From IMG/VR virus record IMGVR_UViG_3300037156_000269, positions 96,626 to 160,625 of that record: a stretch of 64,000 nt of DNA. The stretch is one strand, 5' to 3'. The notes below the pieces were generated by a model. That model saw nothing but the letters and a program-made list of their open reading frames with translations, searched no databases and was not told where the DNA came from. The number at the start of each line of letters is the position of its first letter. Position 1 is the first letter of the stretch. This stretch comes from a virus (taxonomy: Duplodnaviria > Heunggongvirae > Uroviricota > Caudoviricetes). This document shows, one piece after another, positions 8,244 through 63,434 of the stretch. Both the position numbers and the translations under genes were made by a program.

Positions 8244-9476
8244 TTAGAGTGGGATATCTACATCTGTGTCATAGACTTTATTATCGACCGCAGCAGTGGA
8301 ATTGTCAATAGTCCCTTCTTTTATGTCGTTCCGCGTGGGGCCGCGGGAGATCAGGTAGTGGGTTCCGCCGATCGCTCTCACTGCCGTTTTTGCAAACAGA
8401 TCCGCCGATATCATTCCGCGGATAGCTAGAACAACTTTGTCGTCTGTCTGATCCGCGCATGTTAGAACAAAATGTGGTGTTACGTTAAGATCAAAGGCTG
8501 TGATCAAATCCTCCTTAATTGTATCCACAAGAACGCCTTGATCGATAAGCCCAAATCGCAAGTCACCCTGATGCTCATTAGGGACGTTCGTCTCATCCAT
8601 AACCCCATCTGGCCGAGAAACCTCCCACGGCAGAGGTCCAGCTCCGTGACGAGTCAGGTAAGTTCTCGACACGTAGTACGCATCCAGTTTAGTTATCCCA
8701 ACTTCACGAGCAAGTTCTGCGACGTATGGAAGTCCGGTCTTCGAGTGTGTGGTGTGCGGGAAGTTGGGGTGGTCCATATCCAGCATGAGTCCTTGGGCAC
8801 CCTCGAAAATTAAATGCTGACCTTCGTCTGCTCCCTCGCAAAAACTGCCCCACATAATGCCATGAGCCCAGTTAGTTAGAGTACCGCAGTCTGAAAGGAA
8901 ATGGTCGATGATTCCACTATCGTGAAGATACGGAAGCTCACCATCTAACCCGAGCTCCTCCATTCTGCGCGGCACGTACTTGTCTCTAATCCACTGGAGT
9001 TTGTTCTTGAGTGTTTTCTGGTTGCTCAAATCTGTGTAGTGCAAGTTAAACGCGGTTTTGGTTCGCTGGAGGGTCTCGTTAAAGCCAGCGCCACAACTGC
9101 CGTGCCTCTTGTCGCCACGCTGCCTCTCGATCGCGTGGTTGAGTATTATGTCGAACGGGGTGGTCAAAGGGCATCTTGGATCAATGTAAATTGCTGGGGT
9201 CGGTATTTTATCTTTAAGCTCCGCGAACTCTTTTACAAAGAGAATTGGGTTCACAACGAATCCGCGTGCCAGAAATGTCGGAGCACCTGAGAAGCTGCCG
9301 CTTCCGAAATGGTGAAAGACATGGCGCTTGCCGTCTGTGGTTACTACAGTGTGGCCGGCCTGCGCGCCGCCGTTGAAGCGGACGACTGTCGCGCTACCCT
9401 GTGCCGCTAAATAGTCGACAGTTAGGCCTTTTCCCTCGTCTCCAAAATTTGCTCCTATAACAACTGATGTTCTCAT
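8244..9476 (-). CDS. adenylosuccinate synthetase family protein (PurA homologue; PurZ-like candidate)
   Basis: GDEGKG P-loop, RFNGGAQAGHT, FEGAQGLMLDMDH, TRHGAGP motifs conserved; guanine-specificity TKLD motif replaced by TCAD and GRRRRTGW region divergent. Confidence 0.8.
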   Translation of the reverse strand: MRTSVVIGANFGDEGKGLTVDYLAAQGSATVVRFNGGAQAGHTVVTTDGKRHVFHHFGSGSFSGAPTFLARGFVVNPILFVKEFAELKDKIPTPAIYIDPRCPLTTPFDIILNHAIERQRGDKRHGSCGAGFNETLQRTKTAFNLHYTDLSNQKTLKNKLQWIRDKYVPRRMEELGLDGELPYLHDSGIIDHFLSDCGTLTNWAHGIMWGSFCEGADEGQHLIFEGAQGLMLDMDHPNFPHTTHSKTGLPYVAELAREVGITKLDAYYVSRTYLTRHGAGPLPWEVSRPDGVMDETNVPNEHQGDLRFGLIDQGVLVDTIKEDLITAFDLNVTPHFVLTCADQTDDKVVLAIRGMISADLFAKTAVRAIGGTHYLISRGPTRNDIKEGTIDNSTAAVDNKVYDTDVDIPL

Positions 9477-9700: not shown

Positions 9701-10615
9701 TTACAAACTAACTACGCCATTCACTGAGGAATTGGTGCCTACTGTCAAACCACCGATGGCTTTTGAAACCACAAGAGCTGTCGACTTATCCCACGAATCC
9801 ACAACAGCCGCATGGTCAGTACCTTCAGCAACCTGAATAGTAGAGACTATAACTTCAGCCATCTTCGTATGATCTGCCAAGTGAAGCGCCCGCTGACCAA
9901 GAACTTTTTTCCACTTCTCATCGACCGATGGAAATTTACCATTTGAACCTTCATCTACGATGAGATGGAAAATTTCCCACTGCTTCGACGCCATTGTCAA
10001 AAGAGCGTCCATCGAGAAATCCGACTGGATCTCGTGACCAAAGATGTCTTTCAAGTTCTTCTTTAGAAGATGTGGAGTCGGCTCTTCGTCACCTACAGTG
10101 AACAGGTAGCCCTTTTTTCCGCGCTTCTCAAAACAGTCGATCTTGGTATGAAGTGCTGCGAAATACCATGCTAGAGCGTAGCCCTCGTACTCATTTCCGC
10201 CACCGCCCATTTCAAGGTAAAGCTTCTCTAAATCTGTTGCAATGCGGATATCGGATTCGAACTGAGTAGCCTGGAGGGGCGCACTGTCGCACTCAGCATC
10301 TCCGATAGCGAGGCAGCACACCTGAGGGCTTGTGACTGGCTTTCTGTCGTAGATATCTTTCATCAGAGTTGGAAGACCCTTACGGGCCATCGAATCAAGA
10401 ACACGACCCATCGAGCCCGTCACATCAAGACCGATAATGATGGCCGTCGAGTTGGCGTTGTCAGCCGAGTCACGTGACTCGCGAAACGTGATCTTCTTAG
10501 GGTCAAGATCCTCGTTCAGCTTACTCGAATAAATCTCTCTTGTGGACTTACTCGACATGCCGCTCGTTGTCGCGTACGTATCCCAATCACTTGGTTTCCA
10601 CGAACCGCTTCCCAT
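9701..10615 (-). CDS. von Willebrand factor A (VWA) domain protein
   Basis: MIDAS motif IIIGLDVTGSMG and VWA-like fold pattern. Confidence 0.7.
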   Translation of the reverse strand: MGSGSWKPSDWDTYATTSGMSSKSTREIYSSKLNEDLDPKKITFRESRDSADNANSTAIIIGLDVTGSMGRVLDSMARKGLPTLMKDIYDRKPVTSPQVCCLAIGDAECDSAPLQATQFESDIRIATDLEKLYLEMGGGGNEYEGYALAWYFAALHTKIDCFEKRGKKGYLFTVGDEEPTPHLLKKNLKDIFGHEIQSDFSMDALLTMASKQWEIFHLIVDEGSNGKFPSVDEKWKKVLGQRALHLADHTKMAEVIVSTIQVAEGTDHAAVVDSWDKSTALVVSKAIGGLTVGTNSSVNGVVSL

Positions 10616-12623: not shown

Positions 12624-12645
12624 AAATCTCCAGTGTAAACAAAAT

Positions 12646-12720
12646 GGCTAGATTGGCAGGATTCGAACCTGCGACCGCACGCTTAACAGGCGTGAGCTCT
12701 ACCTCTGAGCTACAATCTAA
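12646..12720 (-). tRNA. tRNA-Asn (anticodon GUU), CCA encoded
   Basis: Perfect 7-bp acceptor UAGAUUG/CAAUCUA, D-arm GCUC/GAGC, anticodon stem CACGC/GCGUG, loop CUGUUAA, T-arm GCAGG-UUCGAAU-CCUGC, discriminator G + CCA. Confidence 0.8.
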
Positions 12721-12797
12721 CAACAGGGCTATTATCCCTAATAGGTATAATGTCGCCCATCTTACCCTATTTCAAGCTTTCATTACCTAATTTAAAA

Positions 12798-12886
12798 TGG
12801 CGGAGCCTGCGTGATTCGAACACGCGCCAAGCTTTCGCGAGGACGGTTTAGCAAACCGTTGGTTTAAGCCTCTCACCCAAAGCTCC
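12798..12886 (-). tRNA. tRNA-Ser (anticodon GCU), class II, CCA encoded
   Basis: Acceptor GGAGCUU/AGGCUCC, anticodon stem ACGGU/ACCGU, loop UUGCUAA, long variable arm, T-arm GCGUG-UUCGAAU-CACGC. Confidence 0.75.
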
Positions 12887-12893
12887 GTAAAAA

Positions 12894-12981
12894 TGGCGGA
12901 AGACCCGAGACTCGAACTCGGACGACTTTTCAGTCTCGGCGGATTTCAAGTCCGCTGGTTTAGCCATTCACCCAATCTTCC
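12894..12981 (-). tRNA. tRNA-Ser (anticodon UGA), class II, CCA encoded
   Basis: Acceptor GGAAGAU/GUCUUCC, anticodon stem GCGGA/UCCGC, loop CUUGAAA, long variable arm, T-arm CCGAG-UUCGAGU-CUCGG. Confidence 0.75.
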
Positions 12982-12999
12982 ACAAAACCAAAACAAAAC

Positions 13000-13082
13000 T
13001 GGTGTCTAAGGCGAGACTTGAACTCGCAAGCCGAGGCCACGGGTTTTAAGCCCGCTGTGTTTACCAATTTCACCACTCAGAC
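13000..13082 (-). tRNA. tRNA-Leu (anticodon UAA), class II, CCA encoded
   Basis: Acceptor GUCUGAG/CUUAGAC, anticodon stem GCGGG/CCCGU, loop CUUAAAA, long variable arm, T-arm GCGAG-UUCAAGU-CUCGC, discriminator A. Confidence 0.75.
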
Positions 13083-13086
13083 ACTA

Positions 13087-13169
13087 TGGTACCCGAGACA
13101 GGACTTGAACCTGCACGCTTGCGCACCAGATCCTAAGTCTGGCGTGTCTGCCAATTTCACCACTCGGGC
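13087..13169 (-). tRNA. tRNA-Leu (anticodon UAG), class II, CCA encoded
   Basis: Acceptor GCCCGAG/CUCGGGU, D-region near-identical to the UAA Leu tRNA, anticodon stem CCAGA/UCUGG, loop CUUAGGA, T-loop UUCAAGU; two G.U pairs make it slightly less canonical. Confidence 0.65.
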
Positions 13170-20185: not shown

Positions 20186-21186
20186 TCAATTTTCGGACAG
20201 TACCCGTCTTTTGTGGCTTTCACGTATTCCTTGAGCAAGGCAAAAGCGTCCGCAACCCCCGTGCCGATCGTCACAAAGATGTTTCCAACCATTCGGAATA
20301 TCCGAATGGTTCGCGGCCATGTCCGCTTTGGTTTTTCTTTTCTGTCCCTGATAGGAAGCAGAGCCCAGCATTTCGAGAAGACCTTTTTGATCAGCTTGAC
20401 AATAAACACACCAGCTACAAAAACGAGGGTGGCTCCAGCAGCGAAGGCTATAAAACACCCAAGCACTATCGCGAGCTCATGCCCTACAGAGAACCAAGGA
20501 ACTCTGATAAGACCCACTCCAATCCAGTAGAAGCCCCAAATAGCCGCCCCCAGAACAGGAGCGGCAACAAGGGCTAGGAGAACAGGTGCAAACTTTTGAG
20601 TCGCCGCAGCTAGCCGCATGAGACGTTGTCGACGCAGTTCGCGGAGACGTTTAGTTTCTTGTGCGGCGAGATACTCAGCCTTAAGCCTGCGCGCATCTTC
20701 TAGATTCTTCTCCTTCTTAAGAGCCTCCTGCCTGATCATGAGGTCCTCTCGGTACTTTATAGAAAGCTCCCACGCCTTCTGCTGGTCATTAATACTGTCT
20801 GCCCAACGCCTGTACAACTTTGCATCTTTGCTGAAGCGACTGTTGAACAGTGTTGCAATGTCGTCCGGTGTCAGCGCCGCTATCTTTGGCTCCACATACT
20901 TCGCATCAAATGGCTTGCAGATGTGTTCCTTGATCGGATTGCCGATAAAATCGACAGCGCGTTCTATGAGCTCACCCATGGCGGCGAAAGTCCACAGGAA
21001 GAGGCCGAAGAGACCGAGCACAATCTCTTTCCAAAAGAATACGAAAGACACCGCAAACAAACAGAACACAGTGAGCCAAAAGTACGGACAGAGATTGGGA
21101 AAATCATCTGACTGGGATTTTTGGATACCAAGCACGTACCGCTGCAAACGACGGTGCCAGCTATTTCGACTTAGGTTTATTTTCAT
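20173..21186 (-). CDS. polytopic membrane protein with central coiled coil
   Basis: Multiple hydrophobic helices flanking a charged coiled-coil segment; start MKINLS at 21186 with AAGGAG RBS. Confidence 0.5.
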   Translation of the reverse strand: MKINLSRNSWHRRLQRYVLGIQKSQSDDFPNLCPYFWLTVFCLFAVSFVFFWKEIVLGLFGLFLWTFAAMGELIERAVDFIGNPIKEHICKPFDAKYVEPKIAALTPDDIATLFNSRFSKDAKLYRRWADSINDQQKAWELSIKYREDLMIRQEALKKEKNLEDARRLKAEYLAAQETKRLRELRRQRLMRLAAATQKFAPVLLALVAAPVLGAAIWGFYWIGVGLIRVPWFSVGHELAIVLGCFIAFAAGATLVFVAGVFIVKLIKKVFSKCWALLPIRDRKEKPKRTWPRTIRIFRMVGNIFVTIGTGVADAFALLKEYVKATKDGYCPKIEWKE

Positions 21187-21403
21187 TTTTAGATCTCCTT
21201 TTAAGTTTTTGGTGCAGCCTGACTTTAAAATACTCATCAGACGGAATTTCGCAGATAAACTCGGCCCCACAGCCGACACATCCCATTATGAGACTTTCCT
21301 CATCTTCGTACTCGTCACTATCATAACTGCCAGTTGTAGGTTGCCCACACTTAGAGCAGATTCCGATAAGACTGGCTTTCCCTATGACCACATCAGTCCA
21401 CAT
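21161..21403 (-). CDS. small zinc-ribbon protein
   Basis: CSKCGQ ... CVGCG Cys pairs; AGGGAG RBS. Confidence 0.45.
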   Translation of the reverse strand: MWTDVVIGKASLIGICSKCGQPTTGSYDSDEYEDEESLIMGCVGCGAEFICEIPSDEYFKVRLHQKLKRRSKNENKPKSK

Positions 21404-21413
21404 ACTGCTCCCT

Positions 21414-21821
21414 TTAAATTTTAAGTTGTCTCCAGTTCCTCAGCAGATAGCTTGTCTGCCGAGTTACATCCAAGATCGTGCTTATACCCCGCACCACGTT
21501 CACGTCATCCTCTGGAATGAAGTGAGAGTAGTTCACAGTCAGCTCCGTGCCTTCGGAGATCCGCCACCGCGTAAACACCATGCCAAACAGATAAACGCAG
21601 TTTGGTTTATCTGAGTGGTTGATGTAGTCGGTGTCTTCTTTCTCGCCGTCAATGTACAGATACCCAAACAGACGAATGGCTGTCTGGTTCTCCTGCGAGT
21701 ACTGCTTTCGCCCGACGATTTGTGAGCTTCTCAGCCAGTTGATGACGAGCTTCCCTTGAGGCAAGTTCTGGGTCGCGAAGAGTCCGTAGCCGTGAATTGA
21801 GGAGTTGCGTTTCTCTAGCAC
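21414..21821 (-). CDS. SET-domain protein (putative lysine methyltransferase)
   Basis: GYGLFAT (GxG), YINHSDKPNC (NHSxxPN) and GTELTVNY (ELxxxY) motifs in SET order; 135 aa. Confidence 0.75.
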   Translation of the reverse strand: MLEKRNSSIHGYGLFATQNLPQGKLVINWLRSSQIVGRKQYSQENQTAIRLFGYLYIDGEKEDTDYINHSDKPNCVYLFGMVFTRWRISEGTELTVNYSHFIPEDDVNVVRGISTILDVTRQTSYLLRNWRQLKI

Positions 21822-21824
21822 TTC

Positions 21825-22241
21825 TTATCTTCCTTTTTTACAATTTTCATAAAACTTCCTGAGCGCGTACTTTTGCTTCATGGATAGCCTTCTGGTCCTA
21901 CGGAACTGCGAGTCGAGAGATTCTATGAACTCTCTTGAGTCACCGTAAACTTTAGTCAGACAGACTCTAAGCATTTCCTCAACAGAAACAGAGCCATCAA
22001 ATCCAGGGTAGTCATCCGGAGCTCTGTACTTCTTGTGATCAAAAGGATCTCGCTTGGTCCCTGTCGTGCTGCCTTTTGCTGCAAAATGCACAGAAGAAGA
22101 CTCGAAAGCCTTCTCCCATGTTGTTCCTGATTTTTTGATAAGAGCGTTTGCGAACCTGACCGCGCTTAGAGCCTCGTGATCATTTGTCGACGAGGATAGA
22201 TTCAGAAGCTTGATGAGTCGTGTCTTGTCCGCTTCTGTCAT
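21825..22241 (-). CDS. hypothetical protein
   Basis: 138-aa ORF. Confidence 0.45.
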   Translation of the reverse strand: MTEADKTRLIKLLNLSSSTNDHEALSAVRFANALIKKSGTTWEKAFESSSVHFAAKGSTTGTKRDPFDHKKYRAPDDYPGFDGSVSVEEMLRVCLTKVYGDSREFIESLDSQFRRTRRLSMKQKYALRKFYENCKKGR

Positions 22242-22551
22242 CTTTAACCCCCTCGATCATCCACATAAGTAAGTACGCTGTAGCGTACGGGTGCGGGCAT
22301 TTGGCCAGAAGTTCCCGTGAAACAAAATCCTCGCCGGTGTTCTCAACCCAATTCAAGAGCACCCGGTGCTCTTGCTCAGTTAATTCGTCATAAGCGAGCT
22401 CGAACATCTGGTCTCCGAAATCCTCCTCTTCATCTTGTATGATGCCAGCTAGTAACTCAGAAAGCTTTTCCCCAAACAGCGAAAACTTATCTCTTGCATC
22501 TAAAATTTCCATTTGAATCTCCTGTTTACTGTTGTACGACCGTAACCTCAT
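22180..22551 (-). CDS. hypothetical acidic protein
   Basis: 123-aa ORF. Confidence 0.4.
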   Translation of the reverse strand: MRLRSYNSKQEIQMEILDARDKFSLFGEKLSELLAGIIQDEEEDFGDQMFELAYDELTEQEHRVLLNWVENTGEDFVSRELLAKCPHPYATAYLLMWMIEGVKDDRSGQDTTHQASESILVDK

Positions 22552-24283
22552 CCACTTCTGTTTCTACCTTCGCCACAAACGTCTGAAGATCGGCCGGAAC
22601 TAAATAACGCCACTGATCCATTAATTCAGTGTCGTCCACGAAGAGCCACGACGGAGCTCGCGCGCCTGCTGCTTTTCTGAGCGACACGCAAAACGACATA
22701 TCTGACTTCATTTTTCTGCCAGAAGACAAACTTGAGTATGGAATGCCGCCAGCCGAGATTGCCAAGCTCCCATCCACCAACTCCACATCAACACCCTCAA
22801 CCTGCAACGTCTCTAGAATTTTCCTAGTTTCTACTTTTGGAAGATCCTTGAGTGCCTGCTCGAGAGCGCCGTAGTCCGCACACTGGCGCTCTTTCACAGC
22901 GATAGCTGACACAAGTAAACTTTCCTGCTCACGCATCTGCCCAAGCTGAGTCGCCTGGCGCTGTGCCACGTTGAGTGCCGTACTGATGTCGAGCTGCTGT
23001 TGGCGCAAAGTCTTCTCATCACCGGGCGGTTTTTCAGGTGCCGCAGGCTCCTTGATCTTCTGAATCTCAACGAGCTCACGCTGAAGCTTTACTAGGTTAG
23101 CCTCTACATTGGCTTTACTTAGCGTCAGCTGCTTGTGCTCGCTTTTAAGATTTGTAAGATCAACCATAATGCCCTGGGCCTCGTCGAGCCCCATCTTAAT
23201 CGTGGCGTTCACTTTCTCATTGAACGTCGCGATCTCGCGCGCCTCTTTATTGTAGGCGAGAAGCTCCTTCTCATAAGACCCCATGATGTGATTCACGTGG
23301 TCCTCACCTACCGTCTGGCCGCAAGCATCGCACTTGGATCCGGCTTTTGGCGCCGCCGGCTTCTTTGGGGGAAACGGGACAGGTTTTAATTTCTTACCCA
23401 AAGTCACCGTAGCCGCGCGAACATCGCCTTCTTTCTTTGTGAGCTGAGCGATCGTATCTTCCATAAACTTGAACTGTTCTGGAGGTGGCACTTTAGATGC
23501 CAAAATCCCCGCCTCGATAGCGCCGCGGCGGTTGAGGGACTCACCAAAACGCATTGCGTCGGTCTGGTATTTAGCCAGAGCCTGGCGGTAGAAATCGTGG
23601 GCCGCGAGCTGCGCGTTCAGGTCGTTTAAGGCGCCGGAGTAGGATTCAGTGTCTACATCGTCCTGGGCGGTCAGCTGTGAGAGTTGGGCCCTGACCTGGC
23701 TCAATGCCCCCTCATCCGAAGCTTTCACGTTCTGGAGCTGTCTGCGTTCGCCTGCGATGGCATCAGCATCGATCTTGGGGCTCACGAGCTTCACCTTGGC
23801 CGGGATCTGCGTCCCTGCCGGGAGCATCGACTGAAGAAGGGCCCTGCGATCGACGGCCGCGAGCTCTCCTAAAACTGCAAGCTGCTTCACATCTTTGAGC
23901 GACATGAAGTAGCCGGCGTTCCAGCAGCACATGAAGGTGTCGAGCTTAAGCTTTAAAAGAGCCTCGAGCTCCGTCTGGTTCATGGAGACAGGGGGCAAGG
24001 CGCCACGCGCGAACTTAATAACACTTGTCTTGCCTCGGGCCTTTGTGCGCGTAATGGTCGCATGCTGTGTTGTAACCGACACCTCGGTCTTGTCCTGGCC
24101 TTTTGTGATGAGGTGGTCGGGGCTGTTGCCATTGGAGTCGGTGCCGTACCACACGAAAGCGAACGCTTCCTTCACGGTACTTTTGCCAGACTCGTTCGGT
24201 CCACAAATGATGTTAATGTTTGGTCCGAATTCGAGAACTCGGCAGTGACCGCGAAAGTAGTTCATGCTGACTGTTTTAATCAT
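22526..24283 (-). CDS. SbcC/Rad50-like SMC-family ATPase
   Basis: N-terminal Walker A GPNESGKST, long coiled coil, C-terminal signature/Walker-B-like LFVDDTELMD. Confidence 0.7.
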   Translation of the reverse strand: MIKTVSMNYFRGHCRVLEFGPNINIICGPNESGKSTVKEAFAFVWYGTDSNGNSPDHLITKGQDKTEVSVTTQHATITRTKARGKTSVIKFARGALPPVSMNQTELEALLKLKLDTFMCCWNAGYFMSLKDVKQLAVLGELAAVDRRALLQSMLPAGTQIPAKVKLVSPKIDADAIAGERRQLQNVKASDEGALSQVRAQLSQLTAQDDVDTESYSGALNDLNAQLAAHDFYRQALAKYQTDAMRFGESLNRRGAIEAGILASKVPPPEQFKFMEDTIAQLTKKEGDVRAATVTLGKKLKPVPFPPKKPAAPKAGSKCDACGQTVGEDHVNHIMGSYEKELLAYNKEAREIATFNEKVNATIKMGLDEAQGIMVDLTNLKSEHKQLTLSKANVEANLVKLQRELVEIQKIKEPAAPEKPPGDEKTLRQQQLDISTALNVAQRQATQLGQMREQESLLVSAIAVKERQCADYGALEQALKDLPKVETRKILETLQVEGVDVELVDGSLAISAGGIPYSSLSSGRKMKSDMSFCVSLRKAAGARAPSWLFVDDTELMDQWRYLVPADLQTFVAKVETEVDEVTVVQQ

Positions 24284-26935: not shown

Positions 26936-27136
26936 TCATTTTACCAATACCTCAAACTTTACTGGCAGGTACGTTAGAATCTTACAAATCGTCCCAAGAG
27001 ACGGCTCGCGCTTGCCGTTGAGAATCTGAGAGATAGCCGCCTGTGTAAGCCCCGTTCTTTCTGCAACGTCTTTTTGACAAAGACCTAAAGCATCCATCAC
27101 AGCCTCCAGATTCTTACCAAAGTTTTCCGAGTTCAT
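26936..27136 (-). CDS. XRE-family HTH regulator (paralogue of 50931-51266)
   Basis: GLCQKDVAERTGLTQAAISQILNGKREPS. Confidence 0.6.
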   Translation of the reverse strand: MNSENFGKNLEAVMDALGLCQKDVAERTGLTQAAISQILNGKREPSLGTICKILTYLPVKFEVLVK

Positions 27137-27363
27137 AGTTTCATCACAGCCGCAGTAATCGCCGCGAACATAAAAAACCCAAGAAAAGCAAATAGAATGC
27201 TCGCGCCAGCACCGAAGAACCAGAAGATAAACATAACAGCTATTCTTCCGTTCTCAGACTCCGGAGCAATTATCTTGTAAGAAATAAACATGATCGTTTC
27301 TGGAATCAGAGCTATGCAGATAGAGGCAACTGTCCCACAGAGCCAAAATAGAAGTTTAGTCAT
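27133..27363 (-). CDS. small membrane protein
   Basis: Two TM helices. Confidence 0.4.
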   Translation of the reverse strand: MTKLLFWLCGTVASICIALIPETIMFISYKIIAPESENGRIAVMFIFWFFGAGASILFAFLGFFMFAAITAAVMKL

Positions 27364-27635
27364 TCCCGCACCCTTTCCACAAATGTTTCAGAAGCCTTGA
27401 ACTTTGGAAACCACCTAGCGCTCTTCTGGATCATCGAGCGAGCACTTGGATCAAAGTAAGCGCGCGCTTTGCGTTTAAACTTAACGAAGGTGCCGAAGTT
27501 TTTGATCTTCACCTCATCGCCTTTACGCACAGCTTCAACTATGATCTCCGTGACCGAGTCCAGGAGATTCTCAGCAAGGGTCAGTGTGATTTTACTCTTC
27601 TCCGAAAGCTCTTTGATCAGTTCTTGCTTATTCAT
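27360..27635 (-). CDS. HU/IHF-family DNA-binding protein
   Basis: MNKQELIKEL ... NFGTFVKFKRKAR ... beta-arm pattern of bacterial histone-like proteins. Confidence 0.7.
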   Translation of the reverse strand: MNKQELIKELSEKSKITLTLAENLLDSVTEIIVEAVRKGDEVKIKNFGTFVKFKRKARAYFDPSARSMIQKSARWFPKFKASETFVERVRE

Positions 27636-54316: not shown

Positions 54317-55213
54317 TTATACCGGCACAATGCCTATCAACCTGCTAAATGCTTCTCGGGCTTGCATCGGAACGACTGCGTTGCCGAGGCATCTAAGACG
54401 GTCCATTCGAGCGGGAATCCCATCAGCCACTCGACCCACATCGGGTTCAGTGAGCCACCAATCTCCATCTCGTCCCGTTTCGCTCGCGCCCGACTGTGCG
54501 AACCGCCGTCGAGACCCGTTGTCCTCGGAGTCGGCCACAATTTTACTGCCGTGGAAAGCCCCGTGCCGCGGTTGGTCCCCTGCTTCGGCGCATTGTGATT
54601 TCCGAAAACCGTGGGAGTCGGCCAAAGATTCTTTCGGGCCATTGATGGGAGCGAGTGACGAATTGCTCCGTTGCGCCCAGCCGCTCCGCCTTGATTCGCT
54701 CCATAACTTGAGGCTGTCGGGGTCGGCAGCGAGCATGAACCATCGTTTTCGAAGGTGAGGGGCTCCAAGTTCCGCGGCTGATACAACCGTCCAGCGACAA
54801 TCATACCGAAGTGCGGAAAACTCTTCGGTAACTAGTCGAAGTCCTCGAGTAGTGATAGCTGGGACATTTTCCAAGAAGACGAGTCCAGGTCGAATATCAT
54901 TAACGAGTCGGATGATTTCAAAAAACAAACCGCTTCGCTCGCCGCCCAGGCCTGCGCCACGGCCGGCAGAAGAGATGTCTTGGCAAGGGAACCCGCCGAA
55001 AATGATGTCGGGCTTTGTTCCGAAGTGCTCGGCTCGCAGCGTGCGCACGTCGTCCCAGATCGGAGCTCGGTCAAGTGTGCCATCCCGCATTCGGGACATG
55101 AGAACACCTTGCGCGTATCGGTCTTGCTCACAATAGGCGATGGTTCGCACCCAAGGCTCGAGTGCGAGACTGATTCCTCCAATGCCAGAGAATAAATCCA
55201 AGCCATTCAACAT
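54317..55213 (-). CDS. DNA (cytosine-5)-methyltransferase
   Basis: Motif I LDLFSGIGG, motif IV GFPCQDIS, motif VI ENV in canonical order. Confidence 0.85.
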   Translation of the reverse strand: MLNGLDLFSGIGGISLALEPWVRTIAYCEQDRYAQGVLMSRMRDGTLDRAPIWDDVRTLRAEHFGTKPDIIFGGFPCQDISSAGRGAGLGGERSGLFFEIIRLVNDIRPGLVFLENVPAITTRGLRLVTEEFSALRYDCRWTVVSAAELGAPHLRKRWFMLAADPDSLKLWSESRRSGWAQRSNSSLAPINGPKESLADSHGFRKSQCAEAGDQPRHGAFHGSKIVADSEDNGSRRRFAQSGASETGRDGDWWLTEPDVGRVADGIPARMDRLRCLGNAVVPMQAREAFSRLIGIVPV

Positions 55214-57728: not shown

Positions 57729-60700
57729 TTACAGCTCGGGCTCATCATCGGAAACTACTTTAAGATGCCCCTGATTACCACCACTTTCTCTACGAACTTT
57801 TGACTTTGCATCGGCTACTGGAATCTCAAAGCCGAGGGATTCACACTTGACGGGCCAGACCCGGACAACGCTTTTGTTTGGAGACCGGATCTGGACGGAA
57901 TACCGCCCGTCTTCGACGTCCATGGAGTCCACACCAAGGTGGCCCTCTTCAAAGAGCTGCCGCGCAACGTGACTCACGACTTGTGAGCTTGCGGTGTTCT
58001 TTTTCATCATATCCGAAACGAGCCCGTGGGCAATTTGCGGATAAATGTAAATAACGTCTGGTGTCTTCTCTCGCCAGAACCCGATCGGTTTGCACCCCGA
58101 ATTCCGCTCGATAAGCATCGTGTCTCTCCAGCCAGCAATTTCGTAATGGGCCGCGTCTTGGATAAGCTCTTTGAGAGCTCCCAAAAACACCGTAGCGCCA
58201 GTAGCGTTGTTAACTGACTTAAGGACCTTGCCTCGGATTCCAACCAGATTCCCGTTGTGCGTGCGACAGAGCTCGTCCCTTTGCACTTCCGGGATCGCTC
58301 CGCGGGCAACCAGCATATCCATACAAAGCCTGAAGGCCAGCATGTTAAGGGCCAAATTTTCGCAGATACGGTTCGGGCTGACTTTCCTGTGGGTTTTAGC
58401 CACAGGGTTGTAGAACCCTTGGTAGTACTCGTCCCAAAGAGTTTTGATTTCCTCTTTTGGTAGCCCGAGACAAAACTGAATAAAATAGGGAGTAAACCCA
58501 TTGTACTCAGTCCTGCGCATTTTCACGCGTCCACCGGTTTCCAGATTTTCCTTAAACGGAACATCCACCAACAAAAGACGAGAAATAGCGCTCGACTCGT
58601 TCTCAACAATGTCCTCGCCAGTCACGCACAAAAGTCCACGGACTCGGTCCACTTTCTTGCGCTGCACACCATTTCTATCTAGTGCTGGCCGCCCACCGCG
58701 GTCATAGGTCACTTGGATAAGGCCCGGCATCTCAGTACCCCACTGATCGACAAGCTTGCGCTTGTAGTCATCAATGAGCATGAAAGCGTGCCTGCAGTTG
58801 TACCCGTTTGCGAGTTTTGACTTCGCCGTGCCGCTTGCACTCTGGACCATCTTGAAGACACCAAAGAAGTTTTGAGCCGCTTCGGCAACAAACGTCTTTC
58901 CTCCGGAGAAGGACCCACCAAGCCAAAGAACAGGGCTTTTGTTGAACCCCGTTGCAACCTCGACTTGCGGCAGGATAACGGATGCCATCGCGTGCGCAAA
59001 AGTCGTCATGGTCAAGACAGCGTTGTTACACGTGAAGTAGTCCGCCACGATATGCTGTGCGAGGTCTTTGAACTCCTCCTCGTCGAGAATCTTGAAATCA
59101 AGACTCTTTGAGAAGTCATCAGCAAAGACTTCCACACCGAACTCCTCGTTTGGTCGGATAGACTCTTTATCTATCATAACCGAGGGCATGATATAGACGT
59201 CTTGCCCCTTAAGAGTGTGGTGTCCGATCTGGCGAGAGACTTTCTTGTGAACGATCTGCTCTTGCGAAAACCCGTTGATGCAGTTTCGGATATGATCGTA
59301 AGCAGGCCGGTTGTATTGAAGCTTCGACCCCGCGAGCTGAGTGAGCGTTCTGAAGAACGTGTCAGACGACCCGGTCCATTCGCGGTAGTTCACGTCAAAA
59401 GGAATTTTCTCGTTTCCGACGTAAATTGTGCCACGAAAGCCCCTGTCCTCAGCCGACTCTGCGTTGTTTAAGTCTGCGCCATCTGCCGCCCTAAGAAGTG
59501 TAAGCTCTTCATGAATCAGGATGTGGAAGTTCGTGATGATCTCTTCTTGTTTGATTCCGTTATTATCGCGCCATGTTCTGACGTAACAATTGTTCTGCAA
59601 GAAAAACTCATTACCTCCAACAGACTTAAAGCTCCGGCCTGTCTTGCGACGGGTCTGATCCTTAGTTTCTGCCTGCTCCTTCTTGAACTCTTTCTCATGC
59701 GCTTTCATCTCGCTGACCTTCATCCATTTATTGGATGTGATATGCGATTCTATGCGCTTGTAGTCCTCAGCCCCTAGCCGCTTCGCACAGCGAAGAAGCG
59801 CCTTGATGCGTTCCTCTGGGTTGTCCGGAAGATAGTCCTTCACGTCAGCGTCTTTAGCCTCGCCAGCTTTAGCTGTCTTTGACCGCGCTTTCAGTGCCTT
59901 GAAGATGTGCGAGAGTCTTCCGATGATGTCGTCAGCACTTAAGTGCCGATCTTCGGCAAAGCGAATAGGACTTGGATCTGGCCACAGATCTTCCGAAAGC
60001 CCCTCTGGATTTATCTTTCTGACGCCCTCTTCGTACACAACAGGAGCAAGCCTCTTTAGACAGTGATCGTCATATTTAGGGTGCAGCCCTTTTGTGCACG
60101 CGTGATTGAACTGCATTGTTTTACAGGACATTGGCGCATAGCCGGCGGCGATAGCAAAGTCGATCTTCTTAGCGGTCTCTGCGTCGTTCCAGCGCTTTTT
60201 TACGATGTCGATGCCATTCTTAGTGTTAACCGCTAACTGGATACTGGAGTAGTAATTCTCCTGTGGGATCTTCCCATCTCTATCAGGATACAAACTATCA
60301 TAAGCAAACTTACCAGTCTCATCCTTAGCCCAATATTGCTGCATTGCTGGGCACCCCTCGACGATGCTCCAGAAATCACCAAACTGTTTAATGGCGAGCT
60401 TGCCTTCGTCCTTCCCCTCGGCCTTGCGCGCCTTTTGACGGTTCTGGCTGGCTGGAGCTTGCAGAATCTCTACATTTTGTACCTGTAATACATTTCGGAA
60501 GTCGGCTGGCAAAATGAGCTGAGTTGACTCCAGATAATCCCACTGTTTGTCTAGCGGAAGCGGAGCTTCAAAGTCATCCATCCAGCAGTTGCGTCCTTCG
60601 CGCATTTTCATGTCGTTCATCGGCACCTTGATCCCATTGCCGGTGCCGTTGACATCGTACGAGCGTTGCTTTGGAAAGACCTCGGGCATACCCGCTTCAG

Positions 60701-61259
60701 GTGTGACCTGATACCTGTGGAAGAATCCGAGCTCCTCAAATAGATGCCTGATGTAGCTGGTGAATTCCGTCGGTACAATAAAGTCGCTAAAGAACCAGTA
60801 AATGTGATAGCCCTTGCTGGTGCTTTTCGCGATGTAGCACGGAACACCGAAACTTAAGCTCAGATCGCGCATGTTCTTAGCATCTTCGAAAACGGTTCCG
60901 CGATCAAAGTCTACAACTCCGAAGCGGATACCTTCTTCGCGCATCATGAGCAGAATAATTTCCTGCTCACCTGACAAGTGCTTCCAGATTTCTTTGTCTG
61001 TAAGTTCTGTGTAGTCGCGGTGGCTGCACTCACCGCAGCTGCCTCTCGGTTTTTGCATGAGAAGACAAATCTCTGGTGGCTTACCGTAGTTCGAGCACGC
61101 AGGCATACCCCACTTCTTCTCCACCCAGGTCTCTTCTCCGGTAACCTTATCTACTTCTTTTACTCTGATAGGATAGCTGACCAGAAACCGGTCCTGTCTT
61201 GCGACGAACCGGGATCTGAACAAATCGACCTTTTTCTTCCATGGGTCTATAGTCGTCAT
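57729..61259 (-). CDS. bifunctional primase-polymerase / D5-like SF3 helicase (replicative primase-helicase)
   Basis: N-terminal Cys cluster and prim-pol-like SKGYHIYWFF block; central D5_N-like region; C-terminal Walker A GGSFSGGKT of SF3 helicases; 1176 aa uninterrupted. Confidence 0.8.
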   Translation of the reverse strand: MTTIDPWKKKVDLFRSRFVARQDRFLVSYPIRVKEVDKVTGEETWVEKKWGMPACSNYGKPPEICLLMQKPRGSCGECSHRDYTELTDKEIWKHLSGEQEIILLMMREEGIRFGVVDFDRGTVFEDAKNMRDLSLSFGVPCYIAKSTSKGYHIYWFFSDFIVPTEFTSYIRHLFEELGFFHRYQVTPEAGMPEVFPKQRSYDVNGTGNGIKVPMNDMKMREGRNCWMDDFEAPLPLDKQWDYLESTQLILPADFRNVLQVQNVEILQAPASQNRQKARKAEGKDEGKLAIKQFGDFWSIVEGCPAMQQYWAKDETGKFAYDSLYPDRDGKIPQENYYSSIQLAVNTKNGIDIVKKRWNDAETAKKIDFAIAAGYAPMSCKTMQFNHACTKGLHPKYDDHCLKRLAPVVYEEGVRKINPEGLSEDLWPDPSPIRFAEDRHLSADDIIGRLSHIFKALKARSKTAKAGEAKDADVKDYLPDNPEERIKALLRCAKRLGAEDYKRIESHITSNKWMKVSEMKAHEKEFKKEQAETKDQTRRKTGRSFKSVGGNEFFLQNNCYVRTWRDNNGIKQEEIITNFHILIHEELTLLRAADGADLNNAESAEDRGFRGTIYVGNEKIPFDVNYREWTGSSDTFFRTLTQLAGSKLQYNRPAYDHIRNCINGFSQEQIVHKKVSRQIGHHTLKGQDVYIMPSVMIDKESIRPNEEFGVEVFADDFSKSLDFKILDEEEFKDLAQHIVADYFTCNNAVLTMTTFAHAMASVILPQVEVATGFNKSPVLWLGGSFSGGKTFVAEAAQNFFGVFKMVQSASGTAKSKLANGYNCRHAFMLIDDYKRKLVDQWGTEMPGLIQVTYDRGGRPALDRNGVQRKKVDRVRGLLCVTGEDIVENESSAISRLLLVDVPFKENLETGGRVKMRRTEYNGFTPYFIQFCLGLPKEEIKTLWDEYYQGFYNPVAKTHRKVSPNRICENLALNMLAFRLCMDMLVARGAIPEVQRDELCRTHNGNLVGIRGKVLKSVNNATGATVFLGALKELIQDAAHYEIAGWRDTMLIERNSGCKPIGFWREKTPDVIYIYPQIAHGLVSDMMKKNTASSQVVSHVARQLFEEGHLGVDSMDVEDGRYSVQIRSPNKSVVRVWPVKCESLGFEIPVADAKSKVRRESGGNQGHLKVVSDDEPEL

Positions 61260-61298
61260 AGGCGGGCCTTTCTAAAATGTATGTCCTTGGCAAATCTC

Positions 61299-63434
61299 TC
61301 ATACCCGAGATTCGCCTCTTTTGATCAGCCTCTCGGCCATCTCGACCGCCACGTCGCCCACACTGCTTGCAGAATCGAATAGAATGTCCCTTCCTTGGGC
61401 TTTGAACCCGAGGACATCCATCAAGTCATGGTCTACAGTAGTGCTTCCGTCGGAAAGGGATGCCAGGCTGTGAATAACAAAGATGCTACTCTTTTGCCCA
61501 AGGCGTTCGATTCGCTTGGCGGTCTGATAATAGTATTCAAAATTGTAATCAAGCGAAAGGAAAAGAAGATAACTGGCCGCAGTCAGGGTGATCCCGTGCG
61601 CCGCAGCTTGTGGTTGTAACACCATAATCTTTATTTTGTCCGTCGTTTGAAAATCCCGAATGTTTTCATTACGCTTGTGAACCGGCTCATCTCCAAAAAT
61701 TGCTGCGACACCTAGATGTTTGTACCTGTCTAAAAGCGTGTAAATTTCTTGTTTGAACTGACACGCAATGACAAGCTTCTCGTCACCAAGTTCATCGATA
61801 AACCCGTCTAGATCTTCAAGCTTAGGGTTGACATCGAAAACTCCTTTAGTACTTTCTTCGCCGACAATGTAGCCAGAGGTGATTTGTCTCAGCTTCATCA
61901 TCTTCGAGAGAACGTTCACGGCCTCAGACCTGATGTTGTTCCTGGTCGCTGGGTCCATGAACTCCGTCAGCAGTTGCTCTTCCATCTCCAGATACGCACG
62001 CTCCTGCTCTCCCGTCATGCGCACGTTGCGCCTCATGTCGGTGCGCGGAGGGAGGTCAATACAGTCGCGTTGTTTAAGGAAGATAGACGAGCGTTTTACT
62101 TTGGCAATAAGACGATCGCGATCTTGTGCGGACCTGACGACCCACTTCACTTGACCTGGACCGCCCATCTGCACGGGCAAGAAGTACTCAGCGTGAAAGT
62201 CAGCCACAGATCCTTCGAGCGTCAGCCCTCGGTCGAGAAAGTAAAACTGTGCCCACAGATCATCAAACCCATTTGGGTTCGGTGTTCCTGTGAGGACGTT
62301 TCGCCTTTTCGCTTTCCAGCTGATGTCGATGTGAGCTTGCGTGACGCTCGATCTTGCGTTTTTGATCTTGGTCGACTCGTCCACAATGACCCAGGCAAAG
62401 TTATGGGCTTTGAGCTGCTCCTGATAGGATTTCACCCCATCGTGGTTGATGAGAAAGAGATCGTAAGAAGGATTGTTTAGCATGGAGAGCACGCGATTCA
62501 CTTTCGTATTCTCTTTAATAGCGGTTTTTCCGATAACAGTACCGAAAGGCCTGCTTTCGCCATTGAGATTATACGAGTAGCTGATGCCAGCCTTGTACTT
62601 GATCCAGTTCGCCTCGTCTGCGCGCTCGAGCGCCGTGAGTTTCGGAAGAACGGCACCTGTGACTTGGTTTTTCCACAGAACCTGATTCTTCTTTTTCACA
62701 CTCACAGAGTCCGCAGGCTTCACGCCGTAGTTGTGAATTATTTCCGCTTCGCCGAGGATGTCTTTGTTGCTGATCTTGGACCAGAGGATTCCAGCCTTGA
62801 GATGCGTAAACTTCGCGATGTCATCCATCCAGCTCGTTTCCAAAATGGAAAGTGGAGCGGAGATGAGGACCTTACCACGCATAATGTCGCCCTTAGCCAG
62901 CTGTAATTCGACAGCTCTGGCGGCGCTGCCGGTCTTCCCAACTCCGCAGTCTGCATATACGCCACTGTAGCAGGTTTCCTGCATTACACCAACAATTTTT
63001 GTTTGGTGACTGTAGGGTATAAATTTGCCATTTGGTTCAATTGGAATGCTGTCTTTTGACATGACTTCAGCGAGCTTTACTGCGTGTCGATTATACTCGA
63101 CCAGCTTCTGCCTCTCCTGATCCATAAAAAAGGACCCGCCTTTTACGACGGGTTTCTTGGCTCCAGTGAACACGGTGTAAATTCGGTTTAGATTGGCAGC
63201 ACTTCTGGTGTACTCAAACACACCAGGAATGTCGGACTTGGCCGAGCCTGTGATCCTGGCCGCGATCGGCCAGTCGGCAGGGTCAGAGACGTAGAGCGTG
63301 ATGCCTTTGGCATCGATTTTGATTTCGTTCATCAGAACTTCCAATCTGCTTGTGTGCGGATTTCTTTTTCTTCCCAACACCCTCCGTTGAGCCATAGAGT
63401 GTACTCGTACACAACGGCATAGCGTTCTAGCCAT
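61299..63434 (-). CDS. SNF2-family (SF2) helicase
   Basis: Motif I ADCGVGKTGSA, motif II VIVDESTKIKN (DExH-box, SNF2-like DEAHRIKN), conserved C-terminal helicase lobe. Confidence 0.8.
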   Translation of the reverse strand: MARTLCRCVRVHSMAQRRVLGRKRNPHTSRLEVLMNEIKIDAKGITLYVSDPADWPIAARITGSAKSDIPGVFEYTRSAANLNRIYTVFTGAKKPVVKGGSFFMDQERQKLVEYNRHAVKLAEVMSKDSIPIEPNGKFIPYSHQTKIVGVMQETCYSGVYADCGVGKTGSAARAVELQLAKGDIMRGKVLISAPLSILETSWMDDIAKFTHLKAGILWSKISNKDILGEAEIIHNYGVKPADSVSVKKKNQVLWKNQVTGAVLPKLTALERADEANWIKYKAGISYSYNLNGESRPFGTVIGKTAIKENTKVNRVLSMLNNPSYDLFLINHDGVKSYQEQLKAHNFAWVIVDESTKIKNARSSVTQAHIDISWKAKRRNVLTGTPNPNGFDDLWAQFYFLDRGLTLEGSVADFHAEYFLPVQMGGPGQVKWVVRSAQDRDRLIAKVKRSSIFLKQRDCIDLPPRTDMRRNVRMTGEQERAYLEMEEQLLTEFMDPATRNNIRSEAVNVLSKMMKLRQITSGYIVGEESTKGVFDVNPKLEDLDGFIDELGDEKLVIACQFKQEIYTLLDRYKHLGVAAIFGDEPVHKRNENIRDFQTTDKIKIMVLQPQAAAHGITLTAASYLLFLSLDYNFEYYYQTAKRIERLGQKSSIFVIHSLASLSDGSTTVDHDLMDVLGFKAQGRDILFDSASSVGDVAVEMAERLIKRGESRV

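Follow-up and report, generated by a model that had tools for sequence, protein, structure and literature searches.

We analyzed a 64,000-nucleotide (nt) stretch of DNA from a novel large bacteriophage (positions 96,626 to 160,625 of IMG/VR record IMGVR_UViG_3300037156_000269; this whole stretch is hereafter called the window) and focus here on a gene of 135 codons at 21414..21821. As judged from sequence comparisons and a predicted structure, this gene probably specifies an active, stand-alone class V S-adenosylmethionine (SAM)-dependent methyltransferase with a likely protein-lysine target. Its product, here termed the SET protein, is predicted to be a minimal SET fold in which the cofactor-binding and catalytic motifs are complete and conserved. 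The gene adds to the phage SET genes already on record and falls into a rare subclade that carries a structurally uncharacterized C-terminal module.

Sequence and structural evidence for a SET fold

The Pfam SET profile (PF00856) matches the SET protein with an E value of 2.7e-12 and a score of 47.4 bits (gathering score, 22.4 bits) and is covered over its whole length (profile positions 1–105 of 105); the SET match is therefore far above chance. A profile built from the SET protein and 12 relatives and searched against the PDB retrieves MLL1 (5e-22), EZH2 (~1e-14), and vSET (8e-10), as well as MLL2–4, yeast Set1, ASH1L, NSD2, and SETD2, and all of the best 60 matches are eukaryotic protein-lysine methyltransferases or vSET. 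Direct comparison with vSET by hhalign, using a vSET sequence checked to be identical to that of PDB 1n3j, returns a probability of 97.4% and 34% identity across 89 columns. The AlphaFold2 model, computed from a 13-sequence alignment, has a predicted local distance difference test score (pLDDT) of 90.7, a predicted template modeling score (pTM) of 0.85, and no disordered segment; it presents the SET beta-fold, in which nine beta-strands lead into a C-terminal helix comprising residues 115–132. When the model is compared with the PDB by Foldseek, the top match is vSET (3kma; E 8e-7, template modeling score 0.71 normalized to vSET), followed by ASH1L, MLL1–4, EZH2, and SETD8. Profile and structure comparisons of this kind had been suggested by an initial annotation of the window, which was made from the nucleotides and their translated open reading frames (ORFs); its assignment of a minimal SET-domain methyltransferase is backed by the Pfam profile, the PDB profile matches, and the near-invariant catalytic residues in the 149-sequence alignment described below.

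The interval assigned by that annotation is exact for the 135-residue ORF. The strand, which it left unstated, is minus; read on the plus strand, this interval contains many stops. The three motifs that it had read from the translation are present and in order, with GYGLFAT at residues 11–17, YINHSDKPNC at residues 66–75, and ELTVNY at residues 93–98. The N terminus coincides with the start residue of four homologues (48–56% identity), which share the start MLE[KR]R, and one of these genes also begins with GTG. A Logan contig that was assembled independently matches the window with 100% identity across 18.7 kb, and an identical SET protein is called there. The Shine-Dalgarno-like sequence upstream of the GTG codon (Table 1) sits within the 3' end of a gene encoding a DUF2786 protein. 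The TAA codon of that gene (21825–21827) ends 3 nt before the SET start codon, which suggests that the two genes are translationally coupled.

Active-site residues and selection

Conservation in the active site was read from an alignment of 149 sequences, consisting of the SET protein, its relatives of up to 260 amino acids (aa), vSET, and MLL1; MLL1 residues were numbered back from the C terminus, a numbering consistent with the N3861, Q3867, and C3882 mutant names found in PDB titles. The counts for the three motifs are given in Table 1. Y98 of motif IV is the predicted catalytic or channel Tyr and is equivalent to Y105 in vSET and Y3944 in MLL1. V96 is found at the F/Y-switch position, which is occupied by Val, Ile, or Leu in 102 of the 149 sequences and corresponds to I103 in vSET and Y3942 in MLL1. 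W29 takes the position of MLL1 Y3858, an aromatic residue in 86 sequences (38 Trp, 30 Phe, and 18 Tyr). D71 stands in place of the zinc-binding Cys of the MLL-type NHSC sequence, and the protein harbors a single Cys (C75) with none after it, and thus no post-SET zinc cluster.

The homologues at 48–56% identity are colinear with the SET protein over the full length. The proportion of synonymous differences (pS) is 0.80–0.83 and that of nonsynonymous differences (pN) is 0.29–0.33; synonymous sites are saturated, so the comparison is limited to pN << pS and yields no dN/dS ratio. Because pN is far below pS and the catalytic residues are invariant, the sequences argue for a functional enzyme and not for a SET fold that is in decay or has a structural role only.

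A rare subclade with a C-terminal strand-helix module

Following motif IV, the SET protein continues into a clade-specific module (residues 99–135) that occupies the place of the post-SET region. The consensus past the catalytic Tyr reads Y-R-x-L-...-(D)V-V-x-G-x-S-..-A-L-...-L; in the 149-sequence alignment the position of V110 is Val or Ile in 104 sequences, G112 is found in 94, and L126 in 86. This module is present in the SET protein and in the 63 metagenomic relatives that reach the end of the clade hidden Markov model (HMM), and in 0 of 80 small SET ORFs extracted from IMG/VR viral contigs (73–350 aa, most 92–137 aa). When only the module is searched as a profile, no PDB relative emerges; the best match has an E value of 0.87, and the proteins matched are unrelated. 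By analogy, the module presumably supplies the missing part of the cofactor pocket and of the substrate channel, as the C-terminal flanks of SET7/9, SETD8, vSET, and BurB do.

With a cut-off of E<=1e-3, an exhaustive HMMER search of 1.84 billion representative sequences retrieved 645 relatives, a number that drops to 47 at E<=1e-10; stand-alone proteins of 115–215 aa make up nearly all of the 645. The closest relatives (P0002–P0005; 48–56% identity) are singletons in metagenome assemblies. The SET protein aligns end to end with these four and with P0014–P0019, P0021, and P0167. On the evidence of the alignments, this is a rare subclade of stand-alone SET proteins of ~135–185 aa, each composed of a SET core and the strand-helix module, and the clade spans large phages and one bacterial capsule locus.

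Comparison with characterized SET enzymes

The histone H3K27 methyltransferase vSET (A612L of Paramecium bursaria chlorella virus 1, PBCV-1; PDB 1n3j and 3kma) is, like the SET protein, a virus-encoded minimal SET domain, with 119 aa versus 135 aa here. Neither has pre- or post-SET zinc clusters, both carry the GYG-F-A, NHS-xPN, and E-(L/I)-T-x-x-Y motifs, and both place an aliphatic residue at the F/Y switch (I103 versus V96). The term vSET-like in the initial annotation is thus apt for size and for the absent zinc clusters. It does not hold for kinship: the catalytic core of the SET protein is nearest the MLL/SET1 type, so that vSET is not the nearest characterized relative, and the closest relatives of all are metagenomic stand-alone SET proteins. 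The two enzymes also differ in setting, since vSET acts on H3 Lys27 of a eukaryotic host, whereas the gene described here belongs to a virus of a prokaryote, as indicated by a bacterial-type ribosome-binding site, GTG starts, an HU gene, PHROG phage replication genes, and tRNAs. We infer that the host lacks histone H3.

MLL1 (PDB 2w5y and 6pwv) shares 27% structural identity with the SET protein. The differences from the MLL/SET1 (KMT2) enzymes lie in the post-SET CxCx4C cluster, which the SET protein lacks, in D71 at the position of the NHS-Cys zinc ligand, and, relative to MLL1, in W29 for Y3858, V96 for Y3942, and the absence of WRAD-type partners. Furthermore, MLL/SET1 proteins are eukaryotic and multidomain, whereas the SET protein is a stand-alone phage product.

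SET domains are well known in bacteria (PMC3980110). The closest functional precedents are two small, single-domain prokaryotic SET proteins that act on basic DNA-binding proteins of their own organisms: cpnSET from Chlamydia, which methylates Hc1, and Go1-SET from Methanosarcina, which methylates Lys37 of MC1-alpha (PMC3980110). Both are cellular and not phage-encoded. Finally, BurB from Burkholderia thailandensis (PDB 9l4t) is a SET-domain methionine S-methyltransferase in which His93 packs on the SAM adenine and Tyr124 lies between SAM and substrate, and in which a gating loop seals the pocket, where main-chain atoms hold the free methionine (PMC12542666). It differs from the SET protein in its free amino acid substrate and in a structural identity of 15%.

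Neighborhoods of related SET genes

The genes of relatives are found in dissimilar surroundings. That of P0004 lies between ribonucleotide reductase and DnaJ genes, downstream of a family-A polymerase (PolA) gene. On contig L001, the P0003 contig, the SET gene is a lone plus-strand gene amid minus-strand genes, like a moron insertion, and a 2-oxoglutarate (2OG)-Fe(II) oxygenase gene is found 2.4 kb from it (the two genes occupy 1036–1575 and 3984–4394). The P0008 gene follows a PLD-family gene. The gene of P0167 (40% identity) is positioned at 10001–10438 of L091, a contig of 483,791 bp (ENA ERZ25039540 contig_49851) that is dense in small genes, has a TnpB/IS605 OrfB element as well as genes of the Mom-like, phiTE_072-like, and N6/N4 DNA-methyltransferase types, and is probably a megaphage.

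In an all-against-all comparison of flanks from six loci (the window, L001, L083, L091, L084, and L093), the SET gene is the only gene shared, and the presence of a conserved partner gene was rejected on this ground; the DUF2786 and zinc-ribbon genes that flank the SET gene in the window are likewise not conserved beside SET genes at the other compared loci. Since nothing else is conserved around it, the SET gene appears to behave as a single-gene cassette without a dedicated partner.

A 76-residue hydrophobic ORF that follows the HU gene in the window has a homologue (36% identity, E ~1e-8 to 1e-13) on contig L083, which carries the P0004 gene; this homologue (10427–10594) is immediately downstream of SET there. 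The resulting small-ORF link between the HU and SET neighborhoods is weak.

Candidate substrates and alternative functions

Taking all evidence together, a protein-lysine methyltransferase is the likely overall function of the SET protein. The substrate is put forward only tentatively as a basic DNA-binding or nucleoid protein, either one from the host or the HU that the phage itself encodes. A nucleoid-type substrate is favored because of the prokaryotic precedents, cpnSET and Go1-SET, and because of an acidic loop (D58–D65, with D58, E60, E62, D63, and D65) that lies just before the NHS motif and is acidic in the clade; such a loop suggests a fit to a basic substrate. Next in line come factors of transcription or translation.

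Several observations weigh against this assignment. In the literature, no activity, cofactor-binding, or substrate data were found for the clade or for any phage SET protein. BurB methylates free methionine, and the motifs therefore prove a SAM-dependent SET methyltransferase and not a lysine target. Within the active site, W29 substitutes for the hydrogen-bonding Tyr of MLL1, and the SET-I region (residues ~38–60) aligns unreliably, with three methods giving three different equivalents of vSET Y50 and MLL1 Y3883 (for vSET Y50, Y41 by hhalign and Y56 by MAFFT). Because SET-I is not reliably alignable, we dropped a role for Arg50 as a substitute for the lysine-channel Tyr, which came from a phmmer alignment to MLL1; MAFFT sets R50 opposite MLL1 R3886. 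P0021 (35% identity), a member of the same clade, is encoded where a bacterial Kps-type capsule locus ends, and the clade is therefore not tied to infection. Finally, the lysine-rich HU-family gene that the initial annotation named as a source of substrate is real (PF00216; Table 1), yet the flanks of 92 other SET loci, ~0.87 Mb in all, contain no HU, IHF, or TF1-type gene. HU was thus rejected as a co-traveling substrate, and the idea that the enzyme acts on the phage's own HU has no comparative support.

Among the alternatives, the one that survives best is a phage-own target, that is, HU, virion, or replication proteins whose methylation would tune phage DNA compaction or assembly. The presence of a lysine-rich HU-family protein in the same gene array, 5.5 kb from the SET gene, speaks for it, as do the action of cpnSET and Go1-SET on nucleoid proteins of their own organisms (PMC3980110) and the position of the homologue of the HU-adjacent hydrophobic ORF immediately downstream of SET on L083. 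We nonetheless regard this alternative as unlikely, given the absence of HU and IHF genes from the flanks of the 92 other loci, the lack of any conserved neighbor among the closest relatives, and the presence of a related SET gene (P0021) in a bacterial chromosome.

It is also rather doubtful that the C-terminal module and the channel Trp together define a functionally distinct SET clade, used by large phages for a modification undescribed in phage biology. Such a clade may place lysine methyl groups, as a takeover mark, on a host protein of the nucleoid, of transcription, or of translation, or it may consume SAM and methionine as BurB does and so starve SAM-dependent host defenses.

A small-molecule methyltransferase of the BurB type, converting, for example, methionine to S-methylmethionine, might rewire sulfur or methyl metabolism or drain the SAM pool on which SAM-dependent host defenses rely. 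The precedent of BurB itself notwithstanding, this function is improbable here: structural identity to BurB is 15% versus 27% to MLL1, BurB is missing from all 17 phmmer matches and from the best 60 PDB profile matches, the C-terminal module profile fails to retrieve it, and no dimethylsulfoniopropionate (DMSP) or malleicyprol pathway genes are found nearby.

A protein methyltransferase directed at a nonlysine target, either histidine, as in SETD3, or an N-terminal amine, is very improbable, as the core most resembles canonical lysine methyltransferases, the catalytic Tyr and ELxxxY motif are canonical, and none of the large accessory domains of SETD3 is present. Equally hard to credit is a catalytically silent SET fold, a binding-only decoy or adaptor like the inactive PR-domain proteins, since the cofactor and catalytic residues are all kept and are near-invariant across 149 diverse sequences, which is unexpected for a pseudoenzyme.

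Phage SET genes already on record

Four isolated phages, Pelagibacter phage Kolga, Prochlorococcus phage P-SSM7, cyanophage P-RSM6, and Pseudoalteromonas phage PH1, carry SET genes of ~100 aa that are annotated as "hypothetical protein" (Table 1), and unannotated SET matches also occur in "uncultured phage" records of 636–735 kb. PHROGs contains two SET families, phrog_28741 and phrog_34170, labeled "unknown function"; some UniProt entries are named [quoted passage not shown] and at least 93 IMG/VR viral contigs have a confirmed relative. SET domains of eukaryotic viruses are on record as well, namely vSET and many giant-virus proteins in UniProt. The SET proteins of the four isolated phages and of the PHROG families are, as here, phage-encoded minimal SET domains. 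They differ from the SET protein in being shorter (92–137 aa, mostly ~100) and in ending right after ELxxxY, with no C-terminal module or flank, and are at most 35% identical to it; the SET protein matches phrog_28741 with an E value of 0.018.

No close relatives were found in GenBank phages by DNA or tblastn comparison, and a scan of 185,579 species genomes, limited by its search patterns, gave only four remote matches (27–41% identity). A full-text search of the literature found no paper characterizing a phage SET enzyme and none reporting that an enzyme of a phage methylates lysines in proteins.

Genomic setting of the SET gene

The genes of the window, a long arm with ~49% GC, are tightly packed and lie mostly on the minus strand (leftward). 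It contains six tRNAs and encodes an HU-family protein, a helix-turn-helix (HTH) regulator, a Rad50/SbcC-like ATPase, a DNA methyltransferase, an SNF2-type helicase, and a primase-like protein; PHROG matches cover helicase, primase, and DNA methyltransferase, and there is a Phage_T4_Y07C match. No structural genes are found within the window. There is no DNA match to the window among GenBank phages, and the conserved window enzymes are just 23–41% identical to phage proteins, with the SNF2-type helicase at 22–26% identity to GenBank phage helicases among the matches listed. The SET gene is probably expressed with the early and replication genes.

Table 1 Features of the window and SET genes of isolated phages discussed in the text. 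Fractions refer to the 149-sequence alignment.
Feature	Record	Position	Strand	Details
SET-domain methyltransferase gene (predicted)	window	21414..21821	minus	135 codons plus TAA stop; GTG start
Motif I, G11-Y12-G13 (GxG)	window	21783..21791	minus	predicted SAM-binding loop; G11 128/149, G13 142/149; aligns with MLL1 and vSET GxG
Motif III, N68-H69-S70-D71-K72-P73-N74 (NHSxxPN)	window	21600..21620	minus	predicted cofactor-binding half of SET pseudoknot; N68 149/149, H69 148/149, P73 136/149
Motif IV, E93-L94-T95-V96-N97-Y98 (ELxxxY)	window	21528..21545	minus	E93 148/149, Y98 143/149
Clade-specific C-terminal module, residues 99–135	window	21417..21527	minus	predicted short beta segments (V109-V110-x-G112), then helix 115–132; pLDDT 83–96
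Shine-Dalgarno-like AGGAAG	window	21829..21834	minus	read from sequence; 7 nt 5' of SET GTG
DUF2786 protein (N-terminal motif)	window	21825..22241	minus	138 aa; directly upstream of SET
Double-CxxC zinc-ribbon protein	window	21161-21403	minus	80 aa; adjoins SET; weak ECs_2282-family match, below cut-off
Rad50/SbcC-like ATPase (AAA_23, SMC_N)	window	22526-24283	minus	585 aa; two genes upstream of SET
HU-family protein	window	27360-27635	minus	lysine-rich; 91 aa; PF00216; 5.5 kb from SET
Hydrophobic ORF	window	27133-27363	minus	76 aa; follows HU gene
DNA methyltransferase	window	54317-55213	minus	298 aa; phrog_363, 5.8e-63
Protein with N-terminal AEP-TOTE (archaeo-eukaryotic primase) domain, adjoining SNF2-type helicase	window	57729-63434	minus	1176 aa and 711 aa
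Amber suppressor tRNA, CUA anticodon	window	7420-7494	minus	ARAGORN label "Pyl"
Five-tRNA cluster	window	12645-13169	minus	Asn-GTT, Ser-GCT, Ser-TGA, Leu-TAA, Leu-TAG
Adenylosuccinate-synthetase homologue (PurA-like)	window	8244-9476	minus	410 aa; Pfam 3.2e-49
Pelagibacter phage Kolga SET	MT375529.1	23180-23470		
Prochlorococcus phage P-SSM7 SET	GU071103.1	164245-164535		
Cyanophage P-RSM6 SET	HQ634193.1	132184-132471		
Pseudoalteromonas phage PH1 SET	KX365747.1	33089-33340		

The DNA methyltransferase, a phrog_363 member, belongs to another class than the SET protein, so that the SAM-dependent methyltransferases of the phage number at least two. The N terminus of the Rad50/SbcC-like ATPase resembles those of the defense ATPases LmuB, PtuA, and GajA in PADLOC. 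PADLOC gives no match for the SET protein or its immediate neighbors, and NCBIfam none for the SET protein; membership of the SET protein in a defense or counter-defense family was rejected on the absence of these matches.

Amber recoding in the window, considered alongside the amber suppressor tRNA, was rejected because reading TAG as sense lengthens ORFs less than reading TGA or TAA as sense does; late genes beyond the window could be recoded. The PurA-like protein was not accepted as PurZ, as the NCBIfam PurZ model scores 54 bits versus a cut-off of 300, with PurA also far under its cut-off (145 versus 402). The best phage relatives of this protein (35–41% identical) are from Vibrio and Rhizobium phages of 154–207 kb and one fecal phage, and some of these are annotated as "2-aminooxy adenylosuccinate synthetase."

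Proposed mechanism and significance

In the mechanism that we propose for the SET protein as a lysine methyltransferase, SAM would be bound in a pocket formed by the G11-x-G13 loop, N68-H69, and the C-terminal module, and the target side chain would enter from the opposite face via a narrow aromatic channel that includes Y98, W29, and other residues. The channel would be closed by the C-terminal strand-helix module and not by a zinc-bound post-SET region. Y98 would help to place the incoming amine for methyl transfer by bimolecular nucleophilic substitution (SN2), and the aliphatic V96 at the F/Y switch would leave space for more than one methyl group. The enzyme would act without a dedicated partner, and its role may be in host takeover or in the control of DNA packaging and expression during infection. 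The enzymes that phages are known to use in taking over a host include ADP-ribosyltransferases, kinases, and acetyltransferases.

Taken alone, the SET gene is an annotation-level finding, with a fold, motifs, and probable chemistry that are all textbook, and no sign of an unusual mechanism. Small SET genes are, however, widespread on viral contigs and are also found in isolated cyanophages and pelagiphages, and the substrate of any one phage SET protein would open the whole class. The gene described here is a compact and apparently intact example, the same genome encodes a candidate substrate in HU, and the SET protein would be a convenient entry point.
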